Position numbers and translations under genes: made by a program. From Escherichia coli (lineage in GTDB: Bacteria > Pseudomonadota > Gammaproteobacteria > Enterobacterales > Enterobacteriaceae), in assembly GCF_044324875.1 (NCBI RefSeq), contig NZ_CP172185.1: DNA of 64,000 bases; one strand, written 5' to 3'. Below are positions 11,233 through 35,450 of the stretch, piece by piece; the first letter of the stretch is position 1, and each line of letters begins with the position of its first letter. The notes under the pieces are model-generated. The model was not told the DNA's origin and made no database searches. It was given only the letters and a program-made list of their open reading frames with translations.

Positions 11233-14081
11233 TGACATTCTCGCTTTTCAGACGCCGTGAGGAAAAAGGTACAGCAGAGACCAGGGAACGACCGGAAGCA
11301 GAAGCGGGGGCATCTTCATCGGCCTTTGTTCCGCCCTGTCCTCCGGGGGCACAGCCCCTGCGACGTCCGGGACAGATGACCCGTGATGCTGAGGCGGCGG
11401 TTTATCATGCCGGTCCGTCGGTTATTGATTTTCTGCCATGGGTGGAATATCTGGATGAGGAGCAGTGTCTGCTGCTTGACGACGGGGTGTCGGTGGGAGC
11501 GGTCTATTCGGTGACGCCGGCCGCAACGGAAGGGCGTACGGAAGAGCGCCTGGCGCAAATCAGGGACATGGTGGAGGATGCCCTGCAGGACAGTTTTGAT
11601 GAGTACGACACGCATCCCTGGGTGGTGCAGTTCTACTGTCAGGATGAAAATGATGTGGATGCGTACCTGGACTATCTGAAGGGGTATGTGAAACCCCACG
11701 CGCAGGGAACGGCATTCACGGAGGCCTGGCTGGGTGAAATGGCCCGCCATCTCAGGGGGATTGCCCGTCCTGAGGGACTGTTTACGGACACCCTGGTCAC
11801 CGGTCAGCCCTGGCGGGGACAGCAGCGACGAACCCGGATGGTGGTTTACCGTCGTATCGGGAAGAACAATAACGATCCGATGTCGCCGGTGGCGATGCTG
11901 AACCAGGTCTGCGACCGCGTGGTGTCCGCACTGGGTGGAGCCGGTATCCGCTGTACCCGGATGAACGGTCAGCAGGTGCACAGCTGGCTGCTGCGGTTAT
12001 TTAATCCGGCACCGGACTGGATTGCCCGTGAAGAGCTGTACCGGATGGCCTCACGGGTTGATCCGCGTGAGCGTGGTGATGATGTGATGCCGGTGATGAC
12101 GGATTTTGCCGAGAGCCTGTGGTTTAACCCGCCGTATTCCGATCCGGAGAACGGGGTGTGGTGGCTGGACGCCATGCCGCACTGTGCCGTGGTGGTGGAA
12201 AAGCTGCGTACGCCGCCGGAGCCGGGGACCATCACCGGAGAGATGCCCCGTGGGGAAAAAACGGTGAATGCGCTGATGGACACCTTTCCGGAGGGAACGG
12301 TGATGTGCATGACCATCGTGGTGCAGCCCCAGGACACCCTGGAGGACCGTTTCACCCGGCTGTCGAAAAATGCGGTGGGTGAGAACACGGAATCCATCCG
12401 GGCGCGTCAGGACGTGAAGGTGGTGAAGGAGCTGCTGGGGAACCGGCACAAGCTGTACCGGGCAGGGCTCACCTTTCTTCTGCGGGCAGAGGATATGGAC
12501 AGCCTGAAACGCCGGCGTGTGGAGCTGACCACGGTGCTTCTGGGGGCTGGTCTGCAGCCGGTGCGGCCTGAGTTTGACGTGGGGCCGCTGAACAGCTGGC
12601 TGCGGGCGCTGCCGATGTGTTTTGATCCGGATACGGACAAAAAGCAGTGGTACACGCGTCTGATGTGGGTACAGCACATGGCAGGATTGTTGCCGGTGAC
12701 CGGCCGGGATACGGGGACCGGACATCCGGGGTTCAGTTTTTTTAACCGGGGTGGTGATGTGCTGACTTTCGATCCGCTGAACAAGCTGGACCGTACCCAG
12801 AACGCGCATCTGCTGCTGTTCGGACCAACGGGGGCCGGTAAATCGGCCACGCTGTGTGCTTCACTGTCGCAGGTGATGGCAGTACACCGTCCCCGCCTGT
12901 TCATTGCCGAAGCGGGGAACTCGTTTGGTCTGCTGGCCGATTATTTTGAGAGTCTCGGGCTGTCGGTGAACAAAATCAGCGTCAGACCGGGAACCGGTGT
13001 GACCCTGCCGCCGTTTGCAGATGCGCATAAACTGGTTGAGGAAGGGCAGGATCTGCAGTGCGTGGATGAGCACTCACTGCCTGATATTGAGGATGAAGCC
13101 GGGGATGAAGGGGAGGATAAACGAGACATTCTGGGCGAGATGGAAATCTCAGCCAGGATGATGATCACCGGGGGGGACCCGAAAGAAGAGGCCGCGCTGA
13201 AGCGTGCGGACAGGGCGATGATCCGCGAGGCGCTGCTGATGGCCACACACCGGACATACCGTGAGGGGCGGCAGATGCTGCCGGAGGATTTGCAGTCCGC
13301 CCTGTGGGAGATCTCCCGTGACAGCAGCCGTAACGATGTGCGCAATGCAAAGGCGGCGGAGATGGCGGAGTCTCTGGGGATGTTCACCCAGAAGGGGAGT
13401 TTTGAGGCGGAGTTGTTCAACCGTGAGGGCGAACTGTGGCCGGAAGCGGATGTGACGCTGATTGACCTGGGGCATCTGGCCCGTGAGGGGTATGAGGCAC
13501 AGATGGCGCTGACCATGGTGTCGATGACCAACATGATCAATAACATTGCCGAACGTGATCAGTATCTGGGGCGTGACATCGTGTTTGCGGTGGATGAGGC
13601 GCATATCGTGACGGTCAATCCGCTGCTTTCGCCGTACATGACGAAGGTTGTGAAGATGTGGCGTAAGCTGGGAGCGTGGCTGTGGCTGGCGACACAGAAC
13701 CTGAAGGATTATCCGGATGTGTCGGAGAAGATGCTGAATATGGCGGAATGGTGGGTGTGTCTGACGATGCCACCGGAGGAAGTGAACAACATTGCACGCT
13801 TTAAATCACTGACGGAAGAGCAGAAAGCGGTGCTGATGTCGGCGAGTAAGCTGTCCGGCTGTTATACCGAAGGCGTGGTGCTGGCGAAACAGATTGAGGC
13901 GCTGTTTCGTGCGGTGCCGCCAAGTCTCTATCTGGCGCTGGGCATGACGGAGAAAGAAGAGAAGGCTGAGCGGCGCATGCTGATGAAGGAACATAACTGC
14001 AGCGAACTGGAGGCGGCGTTCCATGTGGCGCGTAAGCTGGACAGGCTGCGTGGTCTGTCGGCCATGGAGGCGGATGTATGA
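11232..14081 (+). CDS. traC: conjugative transfer ATPase (VirB4/TraC-like), ICE class
   Basis: 949 aa; Walker A GPTGAGKS; Walker B-like FAVDEAH. Confidence 0.8.
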   Translation: MTFSLFRRREEKGTAETRERPEAEAGASSSAFVPPCPPGAQPLRRPGQMTRDAEAAVYHAGPSVIDFLPWVEYLDEEQCLLLDDGVSVGAVYSVTPAATEGRTEERLAQIRDMVEDALQDSFDEYDTHPWVVQFYCQDENDVDAYLDYLKGYVKPHAQGTAFTEAWLGEMARHLRGIARPEGLFTDTLVTGQPWRGQQRRTRMVVYRRIGKNNNDPMSPVAMLNQVCDRVVSALGGAGIRCTRMNGQQVHSWLLRLFNPAPDWIAREELYRMASRVDPRERGDDVMPVMTDFAESLWFNPPYSDPENGVWWLDAMPHCAVVVEKLRTPPEPGTITGEMPRGEKTVNALMDTFPEGTVMCMTIVVQPQDTLEDRFTRLSKNAVGENTESIRARQDVKVVKELLGNRHKLYRAGLTFLLRAEDMDSLKRRRVELTTVLLGAGLQPVRPEFDVGPLNSWLRALPMCFDPDTDKKQWYTRLMWVQHMAGLLPVTGRDTGTGHPGFSFFNRGGDVLTFDPLNKLDRTQNAHLLLFGPTGAGKSATLCASLSQVMAVHRPRLFIAEAGNSFGLLADYFESLGLSVNKISVRPGTGVTLPPFADAHKLVEEGQDLQCVDEHSLPDIEDEAGDEGEDKRDILGEMEISARMMITGGDPKEEAALKRADRAMIREALLMATHRTYREGRQMLPEDLQSALWEISRDSSRNDVRNAKAAEMAESLGMFTQKGSFEAELFNREGELWPEADVTLIDLGHLAREGYEAQMALTMVSMTNMINNIAERDQYLGRDIVFAVDEAHIVTVNPLLSPYMTKVVKMWRKLGAWLWLATQNLKDYPDVSEKMLNMAEWWVCLTMPPEEVNNIARFKSLTEEQKAVLMSASKLSGCYTEGVVLAKQIEALFRAVPPSLYLALGMTEKEEKAERRMLMKEHNCSELEAAFHVARKLDRLRGLSAMEADV

Positions 14082-14464
14082 TGTGTCTGAAATACCCGAA
14101 ACCGGAGGTGATGACAGAGGTCATGCCCGGGGGCAGCGTGTTTTTTCTGCCGCCGCAGGGAAAACCGGGTGTTGCGGATCTGGCGCAACCGCATCTGCAG
14201 CGCCTGCGGTCACAGCTTGAACGCAGGCTGGGTACGCTGCATCGTGTGGTGTGTCAGCCCCAGCGGGTGGGGCAGAGCAGCAGTGTGGCCGTGACAGCAG
14301 AAGGGGCGTGTGGCGAGGTGCATCTTCTGCTGACAGTAGGGGGGCATGAGAGCTGGCCCTCTGAAGAGGAATACCGGCATCCGCGCTGGTATATCCAGGT
14401 GGTGGATGCGGCCGATCTGTTCTACCTGCTGCTCTGGCTGTGTGATGGCGGGCAGGAAGCGTGA
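14078..14464 (+). CDS. ICE hypothetical protein; last 62 bp duplicated downstream of iha
   Basis: start overlaps traC stop; C-terminus VVDAADLFYLLLWLCDGGQEA repeated at 16806-16870. Confidence 0.4.
   Translation: MMCLKYPKPEVMTEVMPGGSVFFLPPQGKPGVADLAQPHLQRLRSQLERRLGTLHRVVCQPQRVGQSSSVAVTAEGACGEVHLLLTVGGHESWPSEEEYRHPRWYIQVVDAADLFYLLLWLCDGGQEA
14399..14460. repeat. direct repeat copy 1 (62 bp) flanking iha insertion
   Basis: 59/62 nt identical to 16806-16867. Confidence 0.8.
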
Positions 14465-14553
14465 AGTAAAAATACTTCCACTGGCAAACTGCTCCAGTGG
14501 AAGTGTATGTAATGTTTTGTTGTTTATTTTAATTTCTTGTAAAACACAAACAC

Positions 14554-14619: not shown

Positions 14620-16707
14620 ATGCGAATAACCACTCTGGCTTCAGTAGCCATCCCTTGTCTCGGATTTTCAGTCAGCAGCATGGCTGCGGAAGATGTGATG
14701 ATAGTCACCGCATCCGGCTATGAAAAAAAATTAACCAGTGCAGCTGCGAGTGTTTCGGTGATCAGTCAGGAGGACTTGCGATCCAGCCAGTATCATGATC
14801 TTGGGGAGGCACTGAGATCCGTAGAGGGGGTGGATGTTGAAAGCGGTACGGGTAAAACCGGTGGACTGGAAATCAGCATCCGTGGAATGCCTGCCAGTTA
14901 TACGCTGATACTGATTGATGGTGTCCGTCAGGGCGGGAGCAGAGACGTAACCCCGAACGGTTTTTCTGCCATGAACACGGGGTTTATGCCACCTCTGGCC
15001 GCCATCGAACGTATTGAGATTATCAGGGGCCCCATGTCCACTCTGTACGGCTCTGATGCCATGGGGGGCGTGGTGAATATCATCACCAAAAAGAATGCAG
15101 ACAAATGGCATTCTTCAGTTAATGCCGGGCTGAACCTGCAGGAAAGTAACAAATGGGGGAACAGCAGCCAGTTTAATTTCTGGAGCAGCGGCCCCCTGGT
15201 GGATAATTCTCTCAGCCTGCAGGTACGTGGCAGCACGCAGCAGCGACAGGGCTCATCGGTCACATCACTGAGCGGCACCTCAGCCACGCGCATCCCTTAT
15301 CCAACAGAGTCACAGAATTATAATGCAGGTGCTCGTCTTGACTGGAAAGCAACGGACAAGGATATGTTCTGGCTTGATATGGATACTGCACGACAGCGTT
15401 ATGATAACCGGGACGGCCAGCTGGGCAGCCTTACTGGCGGTTATGATCGTACCCTGCGCTATGAACGTAATAAAATTTCGGCAGGTTATGATCATGCATT
15501 CACCTTCGGAACCTGGAAGTCATCCCTGAACTGGAATGAGACGGAAAATAAAGGCCGTCAGCTTGTACGCAGCGTACTGAAGCGTGATAAATGGGGACTT
15601 GCCGGCCAGCCGAGGGAGCTTAAGGAGTCGAATTTTATCCTGAATTCCTTACTGCTTGCACCTGTGGGTGAATCTCACCTGGTTACTGTCGGTGGTGAGT
15701 ACCAGAACTCATCCATGAAAGACGGGGTTGTTCTCACCAGTACAGGCGAAACCTTCCGGCAGAAAAGCTGGTCGGCATTTGTTGAGGATGAGTGGCATAT
15801 CACGGATGCGGTTGCACTGACTGTGGGCAGTCGTTATGAACATCATGAGGTGTTCGGAGGACACCTCAGTCCGCGGGCATATATGGTCTGGGATGTGGCT
15901 GATGAGTGGACGCTGAAAGGTGGGGTGACCACGGGATATAAGGCACCCGGCATGGGGCAGTTACATAAGGGGATCAGCGGTGTGTCCGGTCAGGGGCGTA
16001 CGAATCTTCTCGGTAACCCGGACCTGAAGCCGGAGGAGAGTGTCAGCTATGAAGCGGGCGTGTATTACGATAATCATGCCGGTCTGAACGCCAATATCAC
16101 GGGCTTTATGACAGAGTTCTCCAACAAGATCGTATCTTATTCTATTGATGATAATACCCGCAGCTATACAAACAGCGGAAAGGCCAGGACTCAGGGTGTG
16201 GAGTTTGCCGGCACACTGCCTCTGTGGTCAGAGGATGTGACGCTGTCTCTGAATTATACCTGGACGCAGAGTGAACAACGGGATGGGGATAATAAAGGTG
16301 CACCACTGAGTTACACCCCTGAGCATATGGTGAATGCGAAACTGAACTGGCAGATTACTGAAGATGTGTCATCATGGCTGGGTGCCCGTTACCGCGGGAA
16401 AACGCCACGTTTCACCCAGAATTATTCGTCACTCTCAGCTGTACAGAAGAAAGTGTATGATGAGAAAGGTGAATATCTGAAAGCCTGGACGGTACTGGAT
16501 GCGGGCATGTCGTGGAAAGTGACGGATGCACTGACGCTGAATGCAGCGGTGAATAATGTGCTTAACAAGGATTACAGTGACGTAAGTCTGTATCGTGCCG
16601 GCAGTGGTACGCTTTATGCGGGTGATTACTTCCAGACGGGGGCATCGACAACAGGTTATGTGATACCGGAGAGAAATTACTGGATGTCGCTGAGCTATCA
16701 GTTCTGA
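14620..16707 (+). CDS. iha: TonB-dependent outer-membrane siderophore receptor/adhesin, Iha/IrgA-like
   Basis: 695 aa; signal peptide; TonB box EDVMIVTAS; plug motif IEIIRGPMSTLYGSDAMGGVVNIITKK; C-terminal YQF; N-terminus matches recalled Iha sequence. Confidence 0.75.
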   Translation: MRITTLASVAIPCLGFSVSSMAAEDVMIVTASGYEKKLTSAAASVSVISQEDLRSSQYHDLGEALRSVEGVDVESGTGKTGGLEISIRGMPASYTLILIDGVRQGGSRDVTPNGFSAMNTGFMPPLAAIERIEIIRGPMSTLYGSDAMGGVVNIITKKNADKWHSSVNAGLNLQESNKWGNSSQFNFWSSGPLVDNSLSLQVRGSTQQRQGSSVTSLSGTSATRIPYPTESQNYNAGARLDWKATDKDMFWLDMDTARQRYDNRDGQLGSLTGGYDRTLRYERNKISAGYDHAFTFGTWKSSLNWNETENKGRQLVRSVLKRDKWGLAGQPRELKESNFILNSLLLAPVGESHLVTVGGEYQNSSMKDGVVLTSTGETFRQKSWSAFVEDEWHITDAVALTVGSRYEHHEVFGGHLSPRAYMVWDVADEWTLKGGVTTGYKAPGMGQLHKGISGVSGQGRTNLLGNPDLKPEESVSYEAGVYYDNHAGLNANITGFMTEFSNKIVSYSIDDNTRSYTNSGKARTQGVEFAGTLPLWSEDVTLSLNYTWTQSEQRDGDNKGAPLSYTPEHMVNAKLNWQITEDVSSWLGARYRGKTPRFTQNYSSLSAVQKKVYDEKGEYLKAWTVLDAGMSWKVTDALTLNAAVNNVLNKDYSDVSLYRAGSGTLYAGDYFQTGASTTGYVIPERNYWMSLSYQF

Positions 16708-16805
16708 TAACAACAAAACCGATATAACGCACAGTAAAATGTAAACATGCTGCTGCTGTCACTGCAGGCAGTGGCAGCAGCGTATAACCGCAGATGTTTG
16801 TCCAT

Positions 16806-16867
16806 GTGGTGGATGCGGTCGATCTGTTCTGTCTGCTGCTCTGGCTGTGTGATGGCGGGCAGGAAGC
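16806..16867. repeat. direct repeat copy 2 (62 bp) flanking iha insertion
   Basis: re-encodes VVDAVDLFCLLLWLCDGGQEA plus stop. Confidence 0.8.
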
Positions 16868-17144
16868 CTGAAAAAACTGCCGCTACTGGCAACTGTGTCG
16901 TGGTGGCATGTTACTGGCAGGTGGTTTACGGAGTATGGGCCCAATTCTGGCCTGCCGGAACATGCCCTTATAACCTTTAACACAGCGGTTACATAAAAAA
17001 CAATGTCTTTTGTGCACAGCAGTATTGTGGCTGAAAGTGAAATAAAAGCGCGATATTATACTGCTTCGCGTCCGGTTGTCATTATCATGGATAGTGCGTT
17101 ATGTTTATAAAGGCGTGACGGACGCTTAATTCTCACGCAACGCA

Positions 17145-20043: not shown

Positions 20044-20403
20044 ATGGCGATGACTCAGGGGACAAAAGCGGGGCTGGTTCTGAAGGGCGTTAAGGTGGCC
20101 GGCATGTGGCTGTCGGGCCTTATTGCCATGATGATTCTGGCCCTCCTGGTGGCTGATACGGGCATGCGGAATACGCAGGAAGTGGAAGCATTACGGCTCT
20201 GGCTCCACGAGACACGTTTCGGATGGCTGGGGTGGCGGGTGTGCCTCTACGGTGCGCTGGCATGGGGATGCCGGAAAACCTGGCGTGCGCCGGGGTTCAG
20301 ACCGGAATACCGCCGTCCCTTTGCGCGGATTTGTCTGGTCAGTGCCCTGTTTGCGTTACTTTGCGAGTACAGCATTTTTTTCGGACCGGGGGTTGAACTG
20401 TGA
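20044..20403 (+). CDS. small ICE membrane protein
   Basis: GGGGAG RBS; TM helices; table ORF 20005 trimmed to ATG 20044. Confidence 0.4.
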   Translation: MAMTQGTKAGLVLKGVKVAGMWLSGLIAMMILALLVADTGMRNTQEVEALRLWLHETRFGWLGWRVCLYGALAWGCRKTWRAPGFRPEYRRPFARICLVSALFALLCEYSIFFGPGVEL

Positions 20404-21923
20404 CCACGAATAACTATCTGGAACACTTTCTGACCCTGCTGGGCTGGCTGGTGAATAATGGCCTGTGGGATCTGCTGACGGGGACGGGGCTGTTTGCCCT
20501 GCCACTGGCCTTCAGGGTTATCGGGATCTGGCTGAAAGTGCGGGAAGAGGGGGCGGATGAGGGAAATAAAGGGATGCTCTCACTGCCCCGCATTGAGCAT
20601 GCCCTGTATGGTGCATTTTTTGTGATGGTGGCCTGTTGTGTGCCGCTGGTACAGGTGACGCTGGACACGCTGAAATTTGATCGCAGCCGTGCCCAGACCT
20701 GCGGTGTGTGGACACCGAAAGCACCCGGTGATACCGGGTACAGCGGGGTGATCAGCAGCCTGGGTGACAGGACAGCGGCCGCCCCGGTGTGGTGGGTGGT
20801 GGTGCATAAACTCTCCAAAGGTGTGACGCAGGCTGCTGTGGCTTCCATTCCCTGCCGGCCGGATATACGGCAACTGCGTTTTGAGGTGCAGCGGACATTC
20901 ATTGCGAACCGGGCGCTGGCCGACGAGCTGCAGGATTTCACCAACGACTGTTACTCGCTGGCGCTATATCAGTGGAAGCAGCGTGACCAGGGGATGACGA
21001 AGGACAGGAAGCTGCTTTCGGATATCAGCTGGATTGGCAGCAGTACGTTCATGCAGGGTGACTACGGAACACTGCAGTCGAAAATGCCACGTGCGGCATT
21101 CCCGTGGAATAGCGCCCGTGACAGCGGCCGTCCGGATACGGGACGGGGTGGTTATCCCACATGCCGTGAATGGTGGAGTGACAGTAGTGTCGGGCTGAAG
21201 AAGCGGGTGACAGGGGAAGTCGATGAAGGACTGTGGTTGCGTATTTCGGCGGCAATGAAAATGCTGGGGAACGCGCAGGCGAACTACCAGGAGGAAATCA
21301 TCAAACGTCTGGTGAGTCCGGCGAACCTGACCCTGTCACAGGGTGGTGAGGTGTACCGCGGCTATGGCGGTAATGCAGATATGACGGCGGCGAATGCGGT
21401 CACGCGTGCAGCAGGCACGGCGGGGTCTGCCGTTGCGAGTCTGGCAGCGTTTCCGGCGTTTGATGCGATGCGGCAGGCGCTGCCGATGGTGCAGAGTATT
21501 CTGCTGATGGCGGTGTATATCATGCTTCCGTTGATTCTGGCGTTTGCGGCGTATGAATTCAGCACGCTGATCACACTGACGTTTGTGGTGTTTGCGCTGA
21601 ACTTCCTGACGTTCTGGTGGGAGCTGGCGCGGTGGCTTGACAGCTGGATGCTGACGGCCTTGTACAGTTCGGACACGCATTCCCGAGTGAACATGATGGG
21701 GCTGCAGAACACGTCGGATGATATCATCATGAATTTTGTGATGGGCACGATGTTTATTATATTGCCAGCGGTGTGGCTTGGGGCTTTATCCTGGGCGGGT
21801 ATTAGCGCAGGTGTTGCTATTGCTAATGCAGCCAGAGATGGAACAAGTGCAGCACATCAAGCAGCTTCAAAGGCAGGAGATCTTGTTGGGAAAGTAGGAA
21901 ATTCTTTAGGTAAAAATCAATAA
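20400..21923 (+). CDS. TraG_N-like mating-pair stabilisation membrane protein; C-terminal tail AT-rich
   Basis: GTG start overlapping upstream stop; multiple TM helices; composition shifts near 21760. Confidence 0.55.
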   Translation: MTTNNYLEHFLTLLGWLVNNGLWDLLTGTGLFALPLAFRVIGIWLKVREEGADEGNKGMLSLPRIEHALYGAFFVMVACCVPLVQVTLDTLKFDRSRAQTCGVWTPKAPGDTGYSGVISSLGDRTAAAPVWWVVVHKLSKGVTQAAVASIPCRPDIRQLRFEVQRTFIANRALADELQDFTNDCYSLALYQWKQRDQGMTKDRKLLSDISWIGSSTFMQGDYGTLQSKMPRAAFPWNSARDSGRPDTGRGGYPTCREWWSDSSVGLKKRVTGEVDEGLWLRISAAMKMLGNAQANYQEEIIKRLVSPANLTLSQGGEVYRGYGGNADMTAANAVTRAAGTAGSAVASLAAFPAFDAMRQALPMVQSILLMAVYIMLPLILAFAAYEFSTLITLTFVVFALNFLTFWWELARWLDSWMLTALYSSDTHSRVNMMGLQNTSDDIIMNFVMGTMFIILPAVWLGALSWAGISAGVAIANAARDGTSAAHQAASKAGDLVGKVGNSLGKNQ

Positions 21924-21970: not shown

Positions 21971-22177
21971 TTATTTTTGTTCTTCCCATTGTTGATATTC
22001 CCAATAGGGGCGAGAGTCTAAAAAGGCAGGTAATTCATCATTTTTTTCTGGTGAATTTGTCAATTTTATGGAATTTGACAACTCAACAGCCAAAAGTTTT
22101 TTCAGCAGAGAGCTGAAAGTCCATGGGGTATCAGATGTTTTGCAACTCCACATTGCTTTTTCTGTTTCATTGTTCAT
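21971..22177 (-). CDS. small hypothetical protein
   Basis: AGGAGG RBS 7 nt upstream of ATG; AT-rich. Confidence 0.3.
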   Translation of the reverse strand: MNNETEKAMWSCKTSDTPWTFSSLLKKLLAVELSNSIKLTNSPEKNDELPAFLDSRPYWEYQQWEEQK

Positions 22178-22474
22178 CTCGTGCCTCCTGTAAGTGGATA
22201 ATCATCCTGGTACTATCATACGTGTTGTATGATAAATATTCAATGCTTGCAAATCCAGGTGTAATTGTCTGATTTTACTCTTCTTGCTGTACAGCCTGTG
22301 ATGTGGGCCAGGACGTGGCACTGCATGTCACAATAGCTCCAGGAGCTTCAGTCTCAGCCCTGCTGAACATTGTGTGATTAATTTTTAAAAATGCGAAAAG
22401 AATAATCTCTCTTTTTAGTCGTCCGGCTATGCCTTAATTCTCCCTGAGTCAAAACCTGTATCAGGAGAAGCTGA

Positions 22475-23047
22475 ATGAAAATATCAAAACTGGTTGTTAT
22501 GGCTACAGTATGTTCCACGTTGAGTGCATGCTCTGTGGAAGAGATGGCTGCTGTGAACAAGAAAATCAGTGACGGTGCATTTGCTGTGACGAAAGCGCTC
22601 AACGGGGGAACGGGCTACGCGGATAATGGTATGCCGATCCTTAACAAGCAATTGCCGCCGGAGCAGGATAAACGCGAAAATATTATTGATGTCCCTGTTG
22701 ATGTGGATACCGCAGCAGGCCGACTGAAACGCTATTACAAGTTTTACTCAAATGATGAGGTGAATGCGATACGCAATAACGGCACAACTGACGGAAAATG
22801 GCAGGCAAGTGCGATTATTGACAATGGACATATCTGGGATGCGATGCCGGGCAGTTACTACAAAATGGGAGGAAACTGGCGTAAAAGCAGCTTTGATGAT
22901 CACCTGACGATTGAGGTGGAAAAGAACGGTAAGGGAAGCCGGGTCTATATCACCTATGCTTCAGCTTCTCAGGCGCATTTGCAGGCAAGTTCTCTTGAGC
23001 CTCTGTTTAAGCGAGTGAAGGATGTGGCTGAAGGAAAGGTTCGTTGA
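22475..23047 (+). CDS. hypothetical lipoprotein
   Basis: lipobox LSAC; AGGAGAAG RBS. Confidence 0.5.
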   Translation: MKISKLVVMATVCSTLSACSVEEMAAVNKKISDGAFAVTKALNGGTGYADNGMPILNKQLPPEQDKRENIIDVPVDVDTAAGRLKRYYKFYSNDEVNAIRNNGTTDGKWQASAIIDNGHIWDAMPGSYYKMGGNWRKSSFDDHLTIEVEKNGKGSRVYITYASASQAHLQASSLEPLFKRVKDVAEGKVR

Positions 23048-23270
23048 TGAGCACATCACGGGCAAGCCCTTATGGCTAAAGGAGAGGGAGATTGCCCGTG
23101 GCGGCCCACTTTTTTAATCATTTTTTTACCATGTTGTCCAGTATTTTTACATAAGTGAAACATCTGGTGTTGTTTTCTGTTCATCGTGCTGGAAGTTACA
23201 GGGCTTGTAATTGAACGGGGAGAGATGTAATTTACGTGCGCAAAAATTTTACTCAAGGGGGAGAAAACCG

Positions 23271-23534
23271 ATGAAACCGAATATCCATCCTGAATACCGT
23301 ACTGTGGTGTTCCACGATACCAGTATCGATGAGTACTATAAAATTGGTTCGACCATCAAGACTGAACGTGTGATTGAGCTTGATGGTGTCACCTATCCGT
23401 ACGTAACTATTGACGTTTCCTCTAAGTCGCATCCTTTCTACACCGGCAAACTGAGAACTGTTGCTTCAGAAGGTAACGTGGCGCGCTTTAACCAGCGTTT
23501 CGGGCGTTTTGTTGACACCAAAAAAGGTGCCTGA
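23271..23534 (+). CDS. rpmE2: 50S ribosomal protein L31 type B (zinc-independent paralog)
   Basis: 87 aa [18 protein letters not shown]... lacking the Cys zinc motif; near-identical to recalled YkgM. Confidence 0.8.
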
Positions 23535-23575
23535 CCAGAAATTGATCACAGGCGCGCTTGATACGCAAAAGTATT
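23468..23575. repeat. direct repeat copy 1 (about 108 bp; 3' end of rpmE2 plus downstream)
   Basis: about 90 percent identical to 26863-26970. Confidence 0.75.
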
Positions 23576-23640
23576 ATTTGTATTATTTCTGATATTTTAT
23601 TTCAAAGGCGGTATTTACCGCCTTAATTAGTTTTATCCGT

Positions 23641-24813
23641 TTATTTATTTCCTTTTGAACGATTATGCGTAACGCAAAGCATTTCGCAATTATCAGGCTT
23701 ACTTTCACCCCCCTTACTCCATGCGGAAACATGGTCGGCTTCCATTTCTTTCAAAGCCCAGATTTTTGTTTTATTGGCATTATCTGAACTGGCGCAAAGG
23801 GGGCAGTTTGAAATACCTTGTTGCTCCGCTTTATCTGTTTGCCTTTTGTAGGCTTGTTTTTTAATTTTTTCATCAAAAAAGCGAATGTTTAATAAACGTT
23901 TATCAGATTGACCACCTAACACATATTCCCAGATGCCTTTAATGTTTTTTACACTATCATCCTGATATAATTTATTGATTTGCGTGGCTAATTCACCTGG
24001 ATTGTATGGTTTGTCTTTATAGGTTTCGTATAAACGCCCCCATTCCAGTCCGCACATTTCTTTTTTTACCTCGGTAAATGTGGTGTTAACCCAGTCAATC
24101 ACGCTATTGAAATAGGTTTTTAATTCCTTGATATTGTCATCATTACGATGGGCATTCATGTATTCGCTGATATTTCCTTTACTGACCCAGTTTAACGCAC
24201 ATTCTAAAATTTCCTGGCGTTTAACATTACCTTTGATGTAAGCACTCCATTTTTGCACATTTGAATTAGCAGAATTACTGAATTCTGCTTTTGCCAGTGT
24301 AACAAATTTGCCCGAATACACCGCATTCAATAATTCTTGTTCATTTAAAGGGACGCCAGTAATATTAATCGTTTTAAACCATTCTTTAATTTCGCTTTCT
24401 GTACCCTTACATTTGTAAATCAGCAAAGTGGTTTGTTTGATTTTCTCTTGTTGGTCTTGCGGTAAACTATGGAAATAGTATGGCGTGCCTTTATCATCTA
24501 TAATGGCGAATTTTCCGGTAACAAACCGCCCAATACTGGTAATGCGCTGCTGACCATCCAGTACTTCAAATGTATCTTCTGTATCTTTGTCAGGTTGATT
24601 AAAATAAATCAAACCGAGCGGATAACCTTTTAATACTGACTGGATAACTGCCACATCTTTCTTACCGTCTGCATAAATATAATTGCGTTGATATTCGGGC
24701 TGAATGGTAAGCTTTCCTGATAAACCAAACAAGCCTTTTCCCTCCAGTTCATTATAAACAAATCCATCGCACAATTGTTCAACGGTGATTGATGTATCTA
24801 ATTGTGTTTTCAT
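23641..24813 (-). CDS. DUF262 (ParB-like, DGQQR) plus C-terminal HNH nuclease
   Basis: motifs QPEYQR and DGQQR near N-terminus; HNH-like HVSAWSKGG...[10 protein letters not shown] at C-terminus; 15 bp after methyltransferase stop. Confidence 0.6.
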
Positions 24814-24828
24814 TTTTCACTTTTCCTT

Positions 24829-25983
24829 TTATTTATTTTGTGGATTGATGTGTTTAATAAGAATGCGTCCATAAGTACGTTTGCCGTTAATAACTGTACA
24901 CCCACCCCTATCTTCAGAATGTTGAGAATAATTTAAAATCTCCAGTATCTCTTCGGGAGTTGATGCTCGTGTATTACCACTTGCTTGCCAAATAATTTCA
25001 AACTGTTCAGGACAATATTTATCCAAAAAGCTAATTGGCACGCCCATAACTCCTGCATAATCGCTAGGAATACCGTTAGTTCTGGGCACTTCAATAGCAT
25101 CATAATTGTCATATGCCTGATAAGCGTTAGGGTCATTGATAATTTGTTTGTTGTATTTTAAATTATCCGCCATAGACATTAGCTGTAAAGATTGATGCCG
25201 TCTGCCGTGTTCAATATTGGTAAACCAACAAGAGTTACCCAAACGAGTATAATCACCTATATATCCTAGACGCTCCGCTTTTTTCTTATCAGCTTCCCTC
25301 ACATCAGCACCTTGTGGTACAGCAAAAACCATATCATTACCATTCCCAGTAGCACCCAACCAAATTTTATTTCCTTTGATAAGTGGAAAAATCTCTTTAT
25401 AAGTAATAGCATTCATATTACCGATAACGGCAAACTGCTTTTTACCTTCCATAATCCATGCCATAAATTCGCGAAACAGCGAAAAAGGCGGATTGGTGAT
25501 AATTATGTCGCTTTCATCGCGTAGAGCTTTGATTTCATCACTACGAAAATCGCCATCACCCTGCAGGTATTGCCATTTAATATCTTTAAAATCAATTACA
25601 CCATCGTGATTACTGTCTTCGGTTAGCGTGTAAATTTTGCCATGTTTCTGGCTTTTATCACTGTCGTATTGTTCACTTTCGCTTTCAAATAATGATGGCT
25701 GATAAGCTGTGTTTAACTGTTTGGATTGATGAGCGTAGCTGGTACTGATGAGCTTCTTTAATCCAAGTCGTTCAAAGTTTTGTGCAAAATAAAGTGTGAA
25801 ATTGCTCCACTCGGGGTCATCACATGGTAAGAGAATGGTTTTGCCACGAAATACGTCTTTATTGAAATCAAGATAGGCATTCATCTCTTTTTCAATATCA
25901 TGGTATTGGGTGTAAAATTCGTCATTTTTGGCTTTTTTTGCAGCAGAAAGATTACTGTTTTTGGCAGAAATATTCTTTGACAT
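24829..25983 (-). CDS. N6-adenine DNA methyltransferase (NPPF motif)
   Basis: catalytic motif IITNPPF; GGAGG RBS 7 nt upstream. Confidence 0.6.
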   Translation of the reverse strand: MSKNISAKNSNLSAAKKAKNDEFYTQYHDIEKEMNAYLDFNKDVFRGKTILLPCDDPEWSNFTLYFAQNFERLGLKKLISTSYAHQSKQLNTAYQPSLFESESEQYDSDKSQKHGKIYTLTEDSNHDGVIDFKDIKWQYLQGDGDFRSDEIKALRDESDIIITNPPFSLFREFMAWIMEGKKQFAVIGNMNAITYKEIFPLIKGNKIWLGATGNGNDMVFAVPQGADVREADKKKAERLGYIGDYTRLGNSCWFTNIEHGRRHQSLQLMSMADNLKYNKQIINDPNAYQAYDNYDAIEVPRTNGIPSDYAGVMGVPISFLDKYCPEQFEIIWQASGNTRASTPEEILEILNYSQHSEDRGGCTVINGKRTYGRILIKHINPQNK

Positions 25984-26033
25984 TTCAAACCTCCAAAACA
26001 GTATTGAAGGTTTGAAAAAACGGGGTTACATTA

Positions 26034-26152
26034 TGCTTGTTGCTTGTTGCTTGTTGCTTGTTGCTTGTTGCTTGTTGCTTGTTGCTTGTTGCTTGTTGCT
26101 TGTTGCTTGTTGCTTGTTGCTTGTTGCTTGTTGCTTGTTGCTTGTTGCTTGT
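26034..26152. repeat. heptanucleotide microsatellite (TGCTTGT)x17
   Basis: 17 perfect tandem units, 119 bp, beginning 50 bp upstream of the methyltransferase ATG. Confidence 0.9.
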
Positions 26153-26211
26153 ATTAGCATTGGATTTTCCCTTTTACTTGTCAAGTATTTTCTTTTGGAT
26201 TCTGAAGTTTT

Positions 26212-26538
26212 TCACGTATTCGTAACGATGGCATCAAGTGCAGCGATAATTTCATTTCTGGATGAAGAAATATTACATATAAAATCTTTGCTGTTTATTT
26301 TTTTTGCATCCAGGAACGTGAGCGCCGGGGTGAACACATAGAAATCCGATGTCTCTATTTTAACTAATGGCGTTATCCTTTTCTTTTTAAGCTCAATATC
26401 ATTTTTTGATACCAGAGGCACGACTATCCTTGTGGTTAAATCGTCAAAATAATCATTCTGGAGAATAAGGTAGAACGGCCAGAGTTTATTCGTTCTGACC
26501 GATGGATTGCGGTATACATCAAATTGCTTTGGCATCAC
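26212..26538 (-). CDS. CcdB-like toxin candidate
   Basis: 108 aa; QFDVYRN...FYLILQNDYF...PL pattern resembles CcdB; 4-nt overlap with upstream antitoxin-like ORF. Confidence 0.4.
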   Translation of the reverse strand: MMPKQFDVYRNPSVRTNKLWPFYLILQNDYFDDLTTRIVVPLVSKNDIELKKKRITPLVKIETSDFYVFTPALTFLDAKKINSKDFICNISSSRNEIIAALDAIVTNT

Positions 26539-26783
26539 AGACTCCCAAAGAAATCGTCATCCGTCAACATTCCTGCTTTTGCCATAAATTTATTCATAGT
26601 GTGCATATCCTGTTTTTCTTCTTCCCGCTCTACAGTTTTGGCCTCGATAGCCTGTGCCAGAAGGTTATCCAGTGTTGCCGACAGGTTCATGTCCATACTC
26701 CGGGCTTTATCAACCAGTGAGGCCGTCAGGTAAACGTTGGTGCTTCTTTTGTTGCTGTTACGAGTGGTGGCAACTGTATTCAT
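26535..26783 (-). CDS. CcdA-like antitoxin candidate
   Basis: 82 aa from ATG 26783 (AGGAG RBS); table ORF 26535-26879 trimmed. Confidence 0.4.
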   Translation of the reverse strand: MNTVATTRNSNKRSTNVYLTASLVDKARSMDMNLSATLDNLLAQAIEAKTVEREEEKQDMHTMNKFMAKAGMLTDDDFFGSL

Positions 26784-26862
26784 TATGCTTGCTCCTGTGC
26801 GCAGATGTATGCGCATAATTATGATGGGGGAAGGATAAACAATCAAGTGTGATCCTTCCGTT

Positions 26863-26970
26863 AGAAGGTAATGTGGCATGCTTTAACCAGCGTTTCGGGT
26901 GTTTTGTTGACACCAAAAAAGGTGCCTGATCAGAAATCGATCACAGGCGCTATTGATATGCAAAAGTATT
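26863..26970. repeat. direct repeat copy 2 (about 108 bp)
   Basis: re-encodes ...[21 protein letters not shown] plus stop and downstream flank. Confidence 0.75.
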
Positions 26971-27053
26971 GCTTGAGTGTCTGAGGTCGGTTATTTTATG
27001 TTTCACAAGTAAAGAAGCATTTAAAAAGAAACTCACAGTCCATATTCCTTCAT

Positions 27054-28944: not shown

Positions 28945-29187
28945 TGTCGCTTCGGCGACCACCAATGTTCCATGAGGCCTGTGAGGAACGCCTTCGGGTG
29001 GCCCACGTCGCTCCGGCGACCACCAATGCTCCATCTGACCTGTGAGGAGCGCCTTCGGGTGGTCAGTTTTACACCTCCGTAGCCTGAAAGGAGCTGTGCG
29101 TGCTGATGGGATATGTTCCCGGAAGTACGGGTAAATCTGCACACCTTTGCGAGCAGATGTCACCACGGTTTACGTGATGATGAAGGC
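28945..29187. repeat. 244-bp direct repeat copy A with internal 48-bp tandem sub-repeat
   Basis: about 95 percent identical to 31740-31983. Confidence 0.8.
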
Positions 29188-29921
29188 ATTCCGGATTTCG
29201 TCCGGTACTTTTACTTTTTCTCAGCAGACTTTCATAAAAATGCTTTATGGATCTGCTTCTTAAGATGTTTTCTGGCTTTCCGCATAAGCTTCTTATGACT
29301 GTGCGCACGGCATAAGGCCATTTGAAATTTGGCCGCTTGCGTGTGTACGTGGATTTTGAAGCCTTGCGGCGTCACTTGAGTGCGACCGTAGGGAACACCA
29401 AGTGACGCCACAACAATCTGCCCTGAAAGCAGCATCACGTAAGGCCAGCCAGAAAATCGTCGCTCGTGACCAGCGTTCTGATGACCGTTTCGTCTGTCTG
29501 ACAGCGTCTTTCAGTAACGTGTCCATGCCTTTCCGGCGCGTCCGTTTTCACGGACGGCCACGCCGGAATGTCTTTTTAAACTTCATAATACATGAGAGGT
29601 AAGTGTATTAACTTGTTGAAAAAAGGAATAAATATGAAAAATCGTTCTGAAGTCGGAAGGCGTCATCGTAAGATGACGGGGAGTAAAAAATCGCCCTGGT
29701 GCACAGGTAGCGAACTCCTGTAAAAACTCAACATGTGCAAGCTCTGCTACATCGACATCAAACGAGCCAGGAAGGCGAGCAACCGCGTTACAGAGCCGTC
29801 CGTGATGACGAAAAACTAACAATATCAACGATCTGGTCTGTTTATCGGAAGGGCATCTCATGCAGTTGAACTTTCAGAACGGATGGTTTTCTGCATCTTT
29901 TTTAACAGGGGGATTGACGTT

Positions 29922-30839
29922 ATGTCCCGTAAATCGTCACGTTCCAAAGTTGAAGTCTTTCGCAAGTCATTCATCTCACTTGCCCGTGATTGTGGTGGCA
30001 GCTACGCAACAACCGCTGACAGAATGCGAATTGCCAGATACTTTTTGAATTATTTGCAAGTAAACGGTATCAAACTTCGTCAGACGGGCAGTATTAAGAC
30101 GAGGCATATTTCTGGTTATCTTCTCAGCAGGAAAGAGCAGGGGATCTCTCACCGCACAATTCAGAATGAACGGGCAGTTATGCGCGCAATTCTAGAGAAA
30201 GATGGTCGCCTTAAAATAGCGGATCCGTCCAATCCTTTATTGAGCAATGAAGCTCTTGGACTCAGGGATACATGCCGTGATGGTAAAAAGATACCACTCT
30301 CACAGGATGAGTTTAATAAAGCCTTCAGTAAGGTTGAAAAAAATAATCCCGGTGTTGCTGCAGTAATGCAAATTTCTTATGTTCTTGGACTGAGGACAAA
30401 AGAAGCTGTTCAGTCTTGTAAATCAGTTAACTCGTGGCTACGTGAACTTGATTCAGGGCATGATTCTCTTCTCGTTGTTTTTGGGACGAAAGGTGGAAGG
30501 CCCAGAGATACAACGATCATTAATCGTGATGCAGTGAAACATGCGCTCATTTATGCAAAAAACATTATGGATAAACAGAATGGTAAACTTATCGATTGCC
30601 CCAATATTAAACAGGCTATAAACGTATATCGTTACCATGTAAGAAAAGCTGGTTTATCTGGAGTGAAGGCACCACATAGTATGCGTTATCATTTTTCGCA
30701 GGAAGCAAGGCAGTTTTATCGAAAAAGTGGATATGGAGATAAAGAAATTTACGCAAGGGTTTCCATGGACCTTGGTCATGGTGACGGAAGAGGGCGTTAT
30801 GTAAAACAGGTCTACTTTAAAGGCGATGATGAGAGCTGA
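29922..30839 (+). CDS. tyrosine-recombinase-like protein (integrase family)
   Basis: C-terminal HSMRYHFS...LGHGDGRGRY resembles Box II HxLRH...LGH...Y; AGGGGG RBS. Confidence 0.45.
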   Translation: MSRKSSRSKVEVFRKSFISLARDCGGSYATTADRMRIARYFLNYLQVNGIKLRQTGSIKTRHISGYLLSRKEQGISHRTIQNERAVMRAILEKDGRLKIADPSNPLLSNEALGLRDTCRDGKKIPLSQDEFNKAFSKVEKNNPGVAAVMQISYVLGLRTKEAVQSCKSVNSWLRELDSGHDSLLVVFGTKGGRPRDTTIINRDAVKHALIYAKNIMDKQNGKLIDCPNIKQAINVYRYHVRKAGLSGVKAPHSMRYHFSQEARQFYRKSGYGDKEIYARVSMDLGHGDGRGRYVKQVYFKGDDES

Positions 30840-30842
30840 TAT

Positions 30843-31583
30843 TTAAAATGAATCCGGAGGATATGTGTTTTTCGCGAACTTATTAATTTCTGTAATAAGA
30901 ATTTCTGATGCACGATTACACATGCTCTCATTAAAGTATCCTATATGGCATTCATGGATGCGGCAATTTAGTTTTCTGGATAGCCATCTGTTTGCCTCGT
31001 TACGGGATATATTTGTTTTTTGCTGATAGCTGTCAAAAAGTTTACGCACTTGTGCTCTGAGTATTCTCAAATTTTCTTTAGCTGGAGTACCTAATGGTCT
31101 CCCTGAATTTTTATGACATCCAACCCATGCATTGCATGGGCTGCAAATCCAGTAATATTTGTTTTCTGTAGTGGGTGTCGTGGAAAATGGCATAAGTGCA
31201 CCTTTTCTGAGTTGTGCCTTATTACCACAGTAAGTGCAGATTACAATTGGACGAACATCTGCAATATTCAGTGCTGCATAAGTAAGACGTTCATTTTTCA
31301 TCATGTTTCGTTTTCCACAGTCAGTGAGAATATGCTTTATTGTGTCTAATTCTTCTCGGAGTATTTTTGAACGGACGCCAGTTCGATAACGCTGTTGAAA
31401 GTAGAGCTCAATATGGCGTAGTTTTATACTATTTATTGATTTTATCTGTATATTGGATTCTTTAAGAAATGAAGCAAATCTTCTGGCTCTCCCCATATAT
31501 ACCAGTATGTCTTCTGGTGTCGGGGCGCATGCTTTAGCTATTTTGATTAGCTCATCTTTTAATTTTTTGTATTTCGATTTCAT
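30843..31583 (-). CDS. integrase-N-terminal-like domain plus Cys-rich zinc-ribbon protein
   Basis: CTYCGN...CSPCNAWVGCH and CRIHECH clusters; convergent with 29922-30839. Confidence 0.4.
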   Translation of the reverse strand: MKSKYKKLKDELIKIAKACAPTPEDILVYMGRARRFASFLKESNIQIKSINSIKLRHIELYFQQRYRTGVRSKILREELDTIKHILTDCGKRNMMKNERLTYAALNIADVRPIVICTYCGNKAQLRKGALMPFSTTPTTENKYYWICSPCNAWVGCHKNSGRPLGTPAKENLRILRAQVRKLFDSYQQKTNISRNEANRWLSRKLNCRIHECHIGYFNESMCNRASEILITEINKFAKNTYPPDSF

Positions 31584-31739: not shown

Positions 31740-31983
31740 TGTCGCTTCGGCGACCACCAATGTTCCATGTGGCCTGTGAGGAACGCCTTCGGGTGGCCCA
31801 CGTCGCTCCGGCGACCACCAATGCTTCATCTGACCTGTGAGGAGCGCCTTCGGGTGGTCAGTTTTACACCTCCTGAGCCTGAAAGGAGCTGTGCGTGCTG
31901 AAGGGATATGTTCCCGGAAGTACGGGCAAATCTGCGCACCTTTGAGAGCAGATGTCACTGCGGTTTTCCGTGATGATGAAGGC
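31740..31983. repeat. 244-bp direct repeat copy B
   Basis: pairs with 28945-29187. Confidence 0.8.
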
Positions 31984-33331: not shown

Positions 33332-33884
33332 CTGTCTTTGTTCATGGCTTTTCAACAGACCGTTATGCTTTCGCCACCACATGGTAAGGCGGGTCTGATT
33401 TTACTGTTAACCGTACGGTTCACTCTCATACCGTACGGTGGGAGTGAACCCTTTTCATTAAGGACACTCTCATGAAAACGAAAACTTCTGCACCTGCTGT
33501 ATATGTTGGTACCTGGGCTAAATACAACAATGGCAGCATAGAAGGATGCTGGTTTAATGATTTAACCGTTTTTGAAACTGAAAGCGATTTTTTATCTGCG
33601 GCCCGTAAGTTTCATCAGGATGAAAAAGATCCTGAATTTATGTACCAGGATTATGAAAACTTTCCTTCGGGAATGGCTTCAGTGCAAAATGGCATCTGAA
33701 TCGATCGCAGTTTGGCATTCGAATCGATCATGATTTGGCATCCATCTCCGATCACAGTTTGGCATCACAATCGATCACGATTTGGCATGCTTCCGATCAT
33801 TGATTGGCATCCTGCCAGTCACTCCGGGAATTAACTCTTTTCACCACAGTCTCCATTGCCGTGTTTAAACCAGTGGAGACGTCA

Positions 33885-35450
33885 ATGTCCAGAAAGAGAA
33901 AATCCAGGAGCACTATGGAAACCTGTTTTAAGATCCTTCAGCTCAAGTTCGACAAGAAGCTGACTAACCGTTGTATCGGACTGACGTTACACATCAGCGC
34001 CTCAACCGTTTTTGAGGTTCTTGCCCGCTTCAAAGCCTCTTCTCTGTCATGGCCATTACCTGCTGATATATCCCATGACACGCTGGAGAAACTCATTTTT
34101 CCGCCCAAAGACACCTTTGCATCAGAGCTTGTAATGCCTGACATGTTGTACTTCGATACGGAAATGAGAAAACCAGGTGTGACGCGGCAACTGTTGTGGA
34201 TGGAATACAAGGCACAGGCGGGTAACAAAGCGATGGGATACTCGCACTTCTGCCGTTGCTACCGGGAGTGGAAAAAAACGCGACGTCTCTCCATGCGCCA
34301 GGAGCATCGTGCCGGCGAAAAGCTTTTTATCGACTTCTGTGGTCCTACGGTTCCTGTTATTAATCCGGACACCGGTGAGATACGCCGCGTGGCAATCTTC
34401 GTGGCCGTAATGGGGGCGTCCAACTATACCTACGTTGAAGCGTGCGAAGGTCAGGACATGATGTCATGGTTAAATGCCCACAGCCGTTGCCTGACCTTCC
34501 TGGGCGGCGTACCGAAGCTGCTCATCCCCGATAACCTCAGAAGCGCAGTGAAAAAGGCCGATCGATATGAGCCTGTCATCAACGACAGTTATCAGGCACT
34601 GGCTGAGCACTATGGCACGGTTATCATCCCGGCCCGACCACGCAAACCTAAAGATAAACCAAAAGCAGAAAACGGCGTCCTCATCGTTGAACGATGGCTT
34701 CTTGCCCGCATCCGTAATGAAACCTTCCACACGCTCAGGGCGCTGAATGCGCGCCTTAGGGAGTTACTGACAGACATGAATAACCGGCCAATGAAGGGGT
34801 ACGGCAATCAAACCCGTGCAGAACGCTTCCGCATACTGGATGCGCCAGCACTCTCTCCGCTGCCTCTGGCACCTTATGAATACACGGAATACAAAGCTGT
34901 GAAGGTTGGCCCTGACTACCACGTTGAATATGCCCGTCACTGGTACTCCGTTCCACACGAACTGGTCGGTCAGCGTCTGTCACTGAAGGCGGGGCAGTCG
35001 GTGGTACAGCTCTGGCACAAGGGGCAGTGTGTGGCGCAACATCCGCGCAGCACACATGAATATAAACACACAACCAATCCGCTTCACATGCCAGAGCGCC
35101 ACCGGCAGCACGGGACATGGACACCGGAACGCCTGATCGAGCAGGGAAAACGTACGGGCCCGTCCACAGGCCGGGTGGTTGAATCCATGCTGAAGGCAAA
35201 ACCCCATCCGGAACTGGCTTATCGTGCAGTTCTGGGGCTGCTGGCACTTCAGAAAAAATACGGCCCGGAACGGCTGGAAAAGGCCTGTTACGTTGCCCTG
35301 CACTATAACGCCCCTGACAGACGCTTTATCGACAATCTGCTGCGTCACCATCGGGAGAACCTGGAGCTTCCATTATCCCGCCAGGGCGAACAACATCCGG
35401 CATATGCTTCAGAGCATGAAAACCTGCGTGGTCCGGGCTACTACCACTGA
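33885..35450 (+). CDS. istA: IS21-family transposase IstA
   Basis: 521 aa, N-terminal HTH and DDE-like core; GGAGA RBS. Confidence 0.7.
   Translation: MSRKRKSRSTMETCFKILQLKFDKKLTNRCIGLTLHISASTVFEVLARFKASSLSWPLPADISHDTLEKLIFPPKDTFASELVMPDMLYFDTEMRKPGVTRQLLWMEYKAQAGNKAMGYSHFCRCYREWKKTRRLSMRQEHRAGEKLFIDFCGPTVPVINPDTGEIRRVAIFVAVMGASNYTYVEACEGQDMMSWLNAHSRCLTFLGGVPKLLIPDNLRSAVKKADRYEPVINDSYQALAEHYGTVIIPARPRKPKDKPKAENGVLIVERWLLARIRNETFHTLRALNARLRELLTDMNNRPMKGYGNQTRAERFRILDAPALSPLPLAPYEYTEYKAVKVGPDYHVEYARHWYSVPHELVGQRLSLKAGQSVVQLWHKGQCVAQHPRSTHEYKHTTNPLHMPERHRQHGTWTPERLIEQGKRTGPSTGRVVESMLKAKPHPELAYRAVLGLLALQKKYGPERLEKACYVALHYNAPDRRFIDNLLRHHRENLELPLSRQGEQHPAYASEHENLRGPGYYH

Follow-up and report, generated by a model that had tools for sequence, protein, structure and literature searches.

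Is the gene for a zinc-free ribosomal protein that lies among the modules of an integrative conjugative element (ICE) of Escherichia coli a part of that element's cargo, or is it the native chromosomal locus with fragments of mobile DNA at its sides? As a rule, zinc-free ribosomal paralogs have been described as genes of the chromosome that belong to the Zur regulon and spare or release zinc in starvation. The gene examined here, for the type B form of ribosomal protein L31 (bL31B), lies in a 64-kb stretch of DNA that was analyzed as a whole (hereafter, the window), and an earlier note on this DNA had placed it between ICE modules and considered that it might belong to the element. Island-borne copies of L31B are in themselves already known: they have been catalogued for O157:H7, and UniProt names them bL31B-2 and bL31B-3. 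One genome paper also lists "ykgM_2," without comment, in a genomic island common to the strains FDN-4 and EC958. A search of the literature on ykgM together with "integrative and conjugative" found no paper, and we found no study of an ICE-borne L31B. What the present case adds to this familiar kind of gene is real but modest: a strongly conserved L31B on an ICE inserted at pheV, to all appearance disconnected from Zur.

The Gene and Its Product

The open reading frame fills exactly the interval given in table 1, from an ATG start to a TGA stop, with 87 codons. The product has the C-terminal end FVDTKKGA, and its 87-aa translation contains no cysteine; hence it lacks the zinc motif (CxxC...CxxC) that type A L31 has. 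The NCBIfam model NF002462 ("type B 50S ribosomal protein L31") matches it with 121.6 bits (E = 1.1e-35) against a curated cutoff of 86 bits, it scores under the cutoffs of the type A models, and Pfam PF01197 is assigned to it. In the E. coli 70S structure 6I7V, the bL31B chain aligns to residues 1–68 of the product and differs by four substitutions. The gene shows two marks of the type B family, the model score and the missing zinc cysteines. With K-12 YkgM (bL31B, L31p) the ICE protein shares family, length, and the lack of cysteine; 82 of the 87 residues are identical (93%; five differ), and residues 1–18, including K2, H6, and E8, are the same. In DNA, 51 of the 264 nucleotides differ (~81% identity). 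The predicted product is a zinc-independent bL31B of the Escherichia type, and the RefSeq naming of the gene is correct. The coordinates, length, family, and missing cysteine motif read earlier from the sequence were all borne out by the reading frame and by NF002462.

Table 1. Coordinates of the Features of the L31B Locus and of Its Surroundings in the Window
Feature	Position	Strand	Basis
iha, siderophore receptor/adhesin, separate ICE cargo inside the conjugation module	14620..16707	+	RefSeq name, Pfam Plug and TonB_dep_Rec
TraG N-terminal domain conjugal transfer gene, end of the mating-pair formation module	20400..21923	+	RefSeq annotation of identical region, Pfam TraG_N
Gene for a predicted 190-aa lipoprotein, last gene common to related ICEs before the variable slot	22475..23047	+	ORF
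Hairpin then U6 run, intrinsic-terminator-like, between the lipoprotein gene and L31B	23048..23114	+	RNA fold −26.2 kcal/mol, z = −2.3
Candidate promoter: −35 TTGTAA (23205–23210), 17-nt spacer, −10 TAATTT (23228–23233)	23205..23233	+	Inferred, alignment with K-12 ykgM TTGAAA/TATCTT
Shine-Dalgarno sequence AAGGGGGAG, 7 nt before the ATG	23255..23263	+	Read from sequence
rpmE2/ykgM-like gene, 87-aa cysteine-free type B L31 (bL31B; RefSeq WP_000803993.1)	23271..23534	+	ORF, NCBIfam, K-12 alignment
Direct repeat, copy 1: last 74 nt of L31B and 46 nt downstream	23461..23580	+	Repeat family D4, 120 nt at 88%
Inserted restriction-modification/ccdAB cassette	23581..26855	−	Pfam, PADLOC, ORFs, absence from ICE variants
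GmrSD_N + HNH restriction enzyme of the cassette	23641–24813		Pfam; PADLOC REase_II
EcoRI-like methyltransferase of the cassette	24829–25983		Pfam; PADLOC MTase_II
(GTTGCTT)n repeat of the cassette	26025–26157
ccdB of the cassette	26212–26535
ccdA of the cassette	26535–26783
Direct repeat, copy 2, with dead L31B 3′ fragment (aa 67–87, 26864–26926, 90% identical)	26856..26975	+	Repeat search, alignment

The Host Element

The 1.3 kb around L31B are 100% identical to two E. coli chromosomes, that of CM2 (from chicken, China) and that of TUM1886 (Japan); over the gene, its flanks, and the cassette that follows, identity is 100% in CM2 and 99.4–100% in TUM1886. In both strains the window falls wholly inside one contiguous element of 85–86 kb, bounded on one side by an intact tRNA-Phe gene (pheV) and on the other, beside ParA, by 50 nt that repeat the 3′ end of the tRNA gene with 92% identity. 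At the pheV end, beside yqgA-speC, a tyrosine integrase adjoins the tRNA gene. These integrase and attachment features lie outside the window, in which no tRNA gene was found. From the ParA end the genes run ParA, DnaB-PI, ParB, STY4528, TopB, Ssb, PilL, TraD, the TIGR037xx conjugation genes, and a conjugative ATPase; the middle of the element holds iha, TraG_N, the 190-aa lipoprotein gene, L31B, and a region of variable cargo; the far end carries TraF, a type IV pilus operon, UvrD, TraI, the tyrosine integrase, and tRNA-Phe.

Of the features by which the SPI-7/pKLC102/PAGI-2 family is recognized, the attachment structure and the gene set are present. The tyrosine integrase next to the tRNA and the distant repeat of the tRNA 3′ end are seen in TUM1886 and CM2, and RefSeq/NCBIfam names and Pfam identify the family gene set (TIGR037xx, TraD, TraG_N, DnaB-PI, ParA/ParB, STY4528/STY4534, TraI, and the type IV pilus); TopB, Ssb, and the tyrosine integrase are likewise common to the family and to this element. 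Judged by its boundaries and gene content, the host element is an SPI-7/pKLC102-type, ICEEc2-like ICE at pheV. ICEEc2, from avian E. coli, has been assigned to the SPI-7/pKLC102/PAGI-2 family (Roche et al. 2010, J Bacteriol 192:5026, as cited in PMC11537424 and PMC13127887), and its integration at pheV/pheU is shared by the element described here. Elements of this type are active: ICEs from clinical E. coli, the donor CH4804 included, transfer by conjugation into MG1655 (PMC13127887). The clinical strain CH4804 encodes the same L31B protein in the same ICE context, and the "ICE-2" that was transferred is not certainly the L31B-bearing element.

Native Locus or Mobile Copy

In K-12, ykgM-ykgO lies between ykgR and ykgL and adjoins the ecp operon. 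This native locus is found in ~5058 of 5426 complete E. coli genomes; a sensitive search found an L31B-like gene in 5070 of them, with a best match 80–90% identical in 5039 records. The ICE allele (at least 97.7% identity) is present in 35 of the 5426 genomes, FDN-4 among them. Like ICEEc2, it is mostly avian, with poultry as the source of 24 of the 35 genomes and humans of six. All 35 have at least one further L31B-like place, a number of matching places per genome that is consistent with ICE strains keeping an additional, native ykgMO copy. The exact ICE protein is recorded in thousands of assemblies, and in each of the ten contexts that were read it follows the same series: TraC ATPase, iha (present or absent), DUF1525, TraU, TraG_N, a small gene, and the 190-aa gene. 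Every copy read has kept the start codon, the Shine-Dalgarno sequence, and the full length of the gene.

These data settle the question posed at the outset. For a native ykgM locus flanked by chance by decayed, independent fragments of ICEs, nothing was found beyond the Escherichia type of the protein and its 93% identity to YkgM; against it, the true ykgM-ykgO lies beside ecp with a DNA identity of only 81%, one att-bounded element at pheV is colinear with the window, and L31B travels with the ICE in every context read. Synteny rules this reading out, and we give it practically no credence. The earlier note had itself named such a locus as the outcome that would tell against its view; the comparison came out negative, ykgM being elsewhere and the ICE flanks not being remnants, and the proposal that the gene belongs to the element is upheld by the single att-bounded ICE of CM2 and TUM1886 and by the ten contexts.

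Two other sources were considered and rejected. For a plasmid origin, no nucleotide match was found among the 72,556 plasmids of PLSDB, and a protein search of plasmids returned only F-prime-like or mis-assigned chromosomal records, records from other genera, and type A rpmE on plasmids of Citrobacter and Salmonella. For a phage origin, there were distant matches only, below 60% identity and many of them from fragmentary records. The Citrobacter and Salmonella plasmids, of ~80–100 kb and in some cases up to ~425 kb, are an observation in their own right, being annotated with a type A rpmE that is ~40% identical to the ICE L31B (e.g., NZ_CP056258.1, NZ_CP059428.1, and NZ_CP092913.1).

A Lineage-Specific Gene under Selection

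How general is the association of L31B with this family of elements? The 190-aa lipoprotein gene that precedes it, for which neither Pfam nor PADLOC gave a match, has homologs (39–51% aa identity) after TraG_N in nine related ICE loci from other genera and in the ICE of E. coli NC101. Around TraG_N we fetched 80 related ICE loci from other genera (TraG_N identity 44–77% aa), including Pantoea, Erwinia, Serratia, Pectobacterium, Photorhabdus, Xenorhabdus, Proteus, Providencia, and Edwardsiella; none of the 80 has an L31B within 8 kb of TraG_N. Some 59 further E. coli genomes hold only a diverged (~70%) match to the 190-aa gene, and in NC101, the one sister E. coli ICE lineage examined, the slot after this gene is occupied by other genes (e.g., DUF4282) and is without L31B. 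Because L31B is absent from the 80 loci of other genera and from the NC101 slot, unlike in the window ICE, it is lineage-specific cargo, the first gene in the variable slot of a single ICE sublineage.

The closest relative found belongs to a third class of L31B, 84% identical in DNA to the ICE copy, which is carried by the tellurite/urease (ter/ure) island of O157:H7 and its relatives (SpLE1, OI-43/48; WP_000803992.1). Like the ICE gene it is a solitary island L31B without ykgO; its leader, AAAGGGGGAAAAC, is similar to that of the ICE copy, and both proteins have the derived residues I19, V34, and D82. The two also differ: the O157:H7 gene sits in a decayed, IS-rich island and starts at GTG, whereas the ICE gene sits in an intact ICE and starts at ATG, and the homology between them stops at the stop codon. 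The O157-type ter/ure island is also known to carry iha. Because they share I19, V34, and D82, the sequences suggest that the ICE and O157 copies form one mobile subclade in which ykgO had already been lost. As to its origin, the ICE protein is 90–93% identical to Escherichia YkgM as against 71–77% for the orthologs of Salmonella, Klebsiella, and Citrobacter, although this resolves the origin only to the Escherichia type, since database clustering at 90% merges the ICE, O157, and native copies.

By the method of Nei and Gojobori, dN between the ICE and K-12 genes is 0.036 with dS > 1, a dN/dS of ~0.014–0.02; against the O157 island copy the ratio is 0.028. Overall the values lie at 0.014–0.03 and are rough, dS being saturated and the gene having only 87 codons, but their direction is clear. 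Between ICE variants, there are six synonymous changes and no nonsynonymous one. This indicates that the ICE copy is under strong purifying selection, and it bears on the possibility that L31B is a neutral hitchhiker, a fragment of chromosomal ykgM captured once by an ICE and without selected function. A passenger of this kind might well have lost its operon partner ykgO and its Zur operator (see below), be redundant in a host that appears to keep its own ykgMO, and be confined, as here, to 35 of the 5426 complete genomes. It would not be expected to show such a ratio (even with dS saturated), to vary between ICEs at synonymous sites alone, or to keep its start codon, Shine-Dalgarno sequence, and full length in every copy read; moreover, the second mobile copy, in the O157:H7 ter/ure island, shares the three derived residues and is equally conserved. 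Selection thus disfavors neutrality, which we consider quite improbable.

Signals for Expression

Compared with K-12 ykgM, which has its place at the ykgR/ykgL/ecp locus, a Zur operator, and ykgO downstream, the ICE gene has none of the three. The upstream regions of the ICE, O157, and K-12 copies align only weakly (41–59% identity). The candidate promoter (table 1) agrees with the consensus at 7 of 12 positions, and a consensus scan called no sigma-70 site at threshold upstream of the gene. In K-12, a 20-nt Zur operator stands between the −10 element and the Shine-Dalgarno sequence; both mobile copies have other sequence in its place, which in the ICE copy is GCGCAAAAATTTTACTCAA. Farther upstream, a terminator scan also made a call (23092–23104) within the hairpin region, and the leader (23236–23300), in which the Shine-Dalgarno sequence is a strong one, is predicted to be unstructured (z = +1.1). 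As modeled, the hairpin and the open leader argue for a separate transcription unit.

The search for a Zur box used two patterns from the literature, GAAATGTTATANTATAACATTTC (22 positions) and TGWNAYRWTATAWYRTNWCA (18 positions) (PMC4219657). Within 320 nt upstream of the ICE gene, the best scores were 11/22 and 12/18, as against 16/22 and 17/18 for the operator of K-12 ykgM, which served as a control. The background, taken by averaging the best scores over 320-nt pieces of the window, is 11.5 and 12.0, and the maximum anywhere in the 64 kb is 15 for either pattern. A third, skeletal pattern (RNNNY) was uninformative, its background already reaching 7–8 of 8 positions. The box over the promoter that is characteristic of the E. 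coli Zur regulon is not found for the ICE L31B by these consensus patterns, which a noncanonical operator or another regulator might escape. The scan agrees with the earlier impression that there is no convincing Zur box upstream of the gene. The further remark that no L36 paralog follows it was confirmed by a tblastn search with YkgO over the window, whose best match (E = 0.067, 20 aa, at 58351) corresponds to no YkgO-like reading frame; directly downstream, where the ykgM-ykgO operon would have its type B L36, the DNA that follows the stop codon bears no relation to that of K-12. Nor does any Rfam family occur in 22000–24000, where a chance match to Histone3 (E = 0.21) was all that appeared.

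The gene might nonetheless be conditionally regulated rather than constitutive, through a noncanonical or distal Zur site, through induction linked to the transfer genes of the ICE, or through silencing of the H-NS type. The O157 copy offers some encouragement for this: in the ter/ure island of O157:H7 strain F8952 (locus L004), there are two borderline Zur-box-like sites upstream of L31B (11749–11772 and 11875–11903), which agree at 14–15 of 18–22 positions (15/18 with the shorter pattern), at the top of the background range, whereas the ICE copy has none. The weak consensus promoter and the position of L31B just after the transfer operon point in the same direction. However, the ICE sequence is degenerate where it aligns with the O157 sites, its best score is at background, and a hairpin of −26 kcal/mol with a U-run separates L31B from the upstream gene. 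We therefore regard conditional control as unlikely, though with some real chance of being correct. A Zur-disconnected copy would also set this gene apart from the VSP-II island of Vibrio cholerae (PMC8248653). There, too, horizontally acquired genes are linked to the zinc starvation response, but those genes are wired to the Zur regulon of the host and are not ribosomal, whereas the ICE gene is a ribosomal paralog with no apparent connection to Zur.

The 3′ End as an Insertion Point

L31B lies, as first supposed, between ICE modules, with the conjugation module (TraG_N) on one side and a restriction-modification/ccdAB cassette on the other. The cassette, of ~3.3 kb, begins 46 nt past the L31B stop codon and has a GC content of 37.6% compared with 50.9% for the window. 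Seven ICE variants (L005, L006, L007, L009, L010, L012, and L013) have an empty site and run directly from 23575 to 26863; the cassette is present in the window and in three others (L008, L011, and L014), and empty and filled are the only two states seen. The geometry of the repeats that bracket the insertion (table 1) is what would be expected from a single crossover of a circular molecule carrying a homologous segment.

Does the ICE then keep L31B mainly for its 3′ end, as an attachment or recombination site for cassettes of cargo? The bracketing by a 120-nt imperfect duplication of this end, the existence of empty sites, and the iha cassette, arranged in the same way at the 3′ end of a different ICE gene, are what such a role would produce. 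On the other hand, purifying selection acts over the whole protein and not on the 3′ end alone, the cassette carries no recombinase, and the site has been seen in its two states only. A diverged ICE of E. coli 2013C-3033 (L096, 7001–10225; TraG 84% nt identity) has the same cassette (window 23600–26863), 96% identical and with the same ends, after TraG_N, in an element where no 190-aa gene, no L31B, and no flanking repeats around the cassette were found. An obligatory att site in L31B is not supported by this case. Retention of the gene for its 3′ end is partly supported but insufficient as an explanation, and we hold it to be very improbable. The earlier statement that L31B is the insertion target of the defense island thus stands as far as the 120-nt repeat and the empty-site variants go, and has to be qualified: because the same cassette occurs in the 2013C-3033 ICE without L31B, the 3′ end is a used but not an obligatory insertion point.

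The cassette has a further feature, an array of ~19 copies of GTTGCTT (26025–26157) just upstream of the EcoRI-like methyltransferase/GmrSD-HNH pair. Compared with that of the window, the TUM1886 cassette lacks 21 nt (three 7-nt units), and in 2013C-3033 the tract seems reduced in length; its copy number hence appears variable, and it is a candidate phase-variable switch.

A Possible Function

On balance, and in part by inference, we think it somewhat more likely than not that L31B is a functional accessory cargo of the ICE, a Zur-independent bL31B that supplements or replaces the zinc-binding L31 of the host. The terminator-like hairpin would insulate the gene from those upstream, and a weak promoter of its own, of the sigma-70 type, would drive its transcription at any zinc status. 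The protein would then enter 70S ribosomes in place of the zinc-binding bL31A. Native L31p acts through the rpmE leader to repress L31 synthesis, for which K2, H6, and E8 are required (PMC9825181); because these residues are all kept in the ICE copy, it may likewise repress translation of the host's rpmE mRNA through its conserved N-terminus (M1, K2, H6, and E8). Taken together, these steps would lower the ribosomal zinc demand of ICE strains, either pre-emptively or in addition to the native response, which would be useful in zinc-limited host niches and in parallel with the iron receptor iha on the same element.

Such a copy need not be wholly beneficial. Type A and type B L31 are unequal in fitness, growth at low temperature, reading-frame maintenance, and processivity, and E. 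coli with bL31B only loses fitness when grown cyclically or at low temperature (PMC7363858). Because the two forms are not equivalent, constitutive expression from a deregulated copy could be costly as well as beneficial. The added benefit may also be small, since the hosts appear to keep their Zur-regulated ykgMO.

A bolder form of this functional reading, which we rate as improbable, is that the ICE acts as a transmissible remodeler of the ribosome. On entry, bL31B would be made at any zinc level, translation of bL31A would be shut off via the rpmE leader, and the ribosome pool would shift to the bL31B form, with a change in both zinc economy and translation properties (reading-frame maintenance, processivity, and the response to temperature); together with the O157:H7 island copies, the ICE gene would represent a mobile, Zur-independent clade of L31B.

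The interest of the locus lies in finding a strongly conserved L31B, without a recognizable Zur operator, on conjugative elements of an active family that occurs in extraintestinal E. coli from birds and humans. Its expression would mean that the composition of ribosomes and the demand for zinc can pass horizontally between strains, with no tie to zinc sensing, and would bear on nutritional immunity and on the debate about specialized ribosomes; if the gene is not expressed, or if it adds nothing to native ykgM, it is merely an annotated extra copy. Derivatives of MG1655 that carry single ICEs of this family already exist (PMC13127887).

Other Features of the Element

The idea that the ICE joins a zinc-sparing L31 to an iron-uptake receptor is correct in that both genes are on the element, but iha is a separate and dispensable insertion, missing from the ICE variants L009 and L012. 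It is flanked by 77-nt direct repeats (14389–14465 and 16796–16872; 91%), the first of which is the last 76 nt of the upstream 128-aa ICE gene, and a Fur-box-like site (14/19) lies upstream of it at 14552.

A repeat of ~230–250 nt (94–98%) at 28945–29171 and 31740–31966 flanks an internal Integrase_1/DUF3268 pair (29883–30839, + strand, and 30843–31583, − strand), and the same ICE has a third copy, directly oriented and outside the window, between STY4534 and topB (CM2 5373395–5373718). An IS21-family element (33683–36321; istA 33804–35450, istB 35224–36222) interrupts the anti-restriction gene ardA, which is intact in TUM1886 and in the other ICE variants.

Finally, ~33 copies of GCAAC (44281–44430, − strand) begin right after an ATG (44431–44429) and end 58 nt upstream of a type III methyltransferase gene (42187–44223). 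The type III restriction subunit (39269–42184) is intact in the window and frameshifted in TUM1886, and the tract makes this a candidate phase-variable type III system in E. coli.
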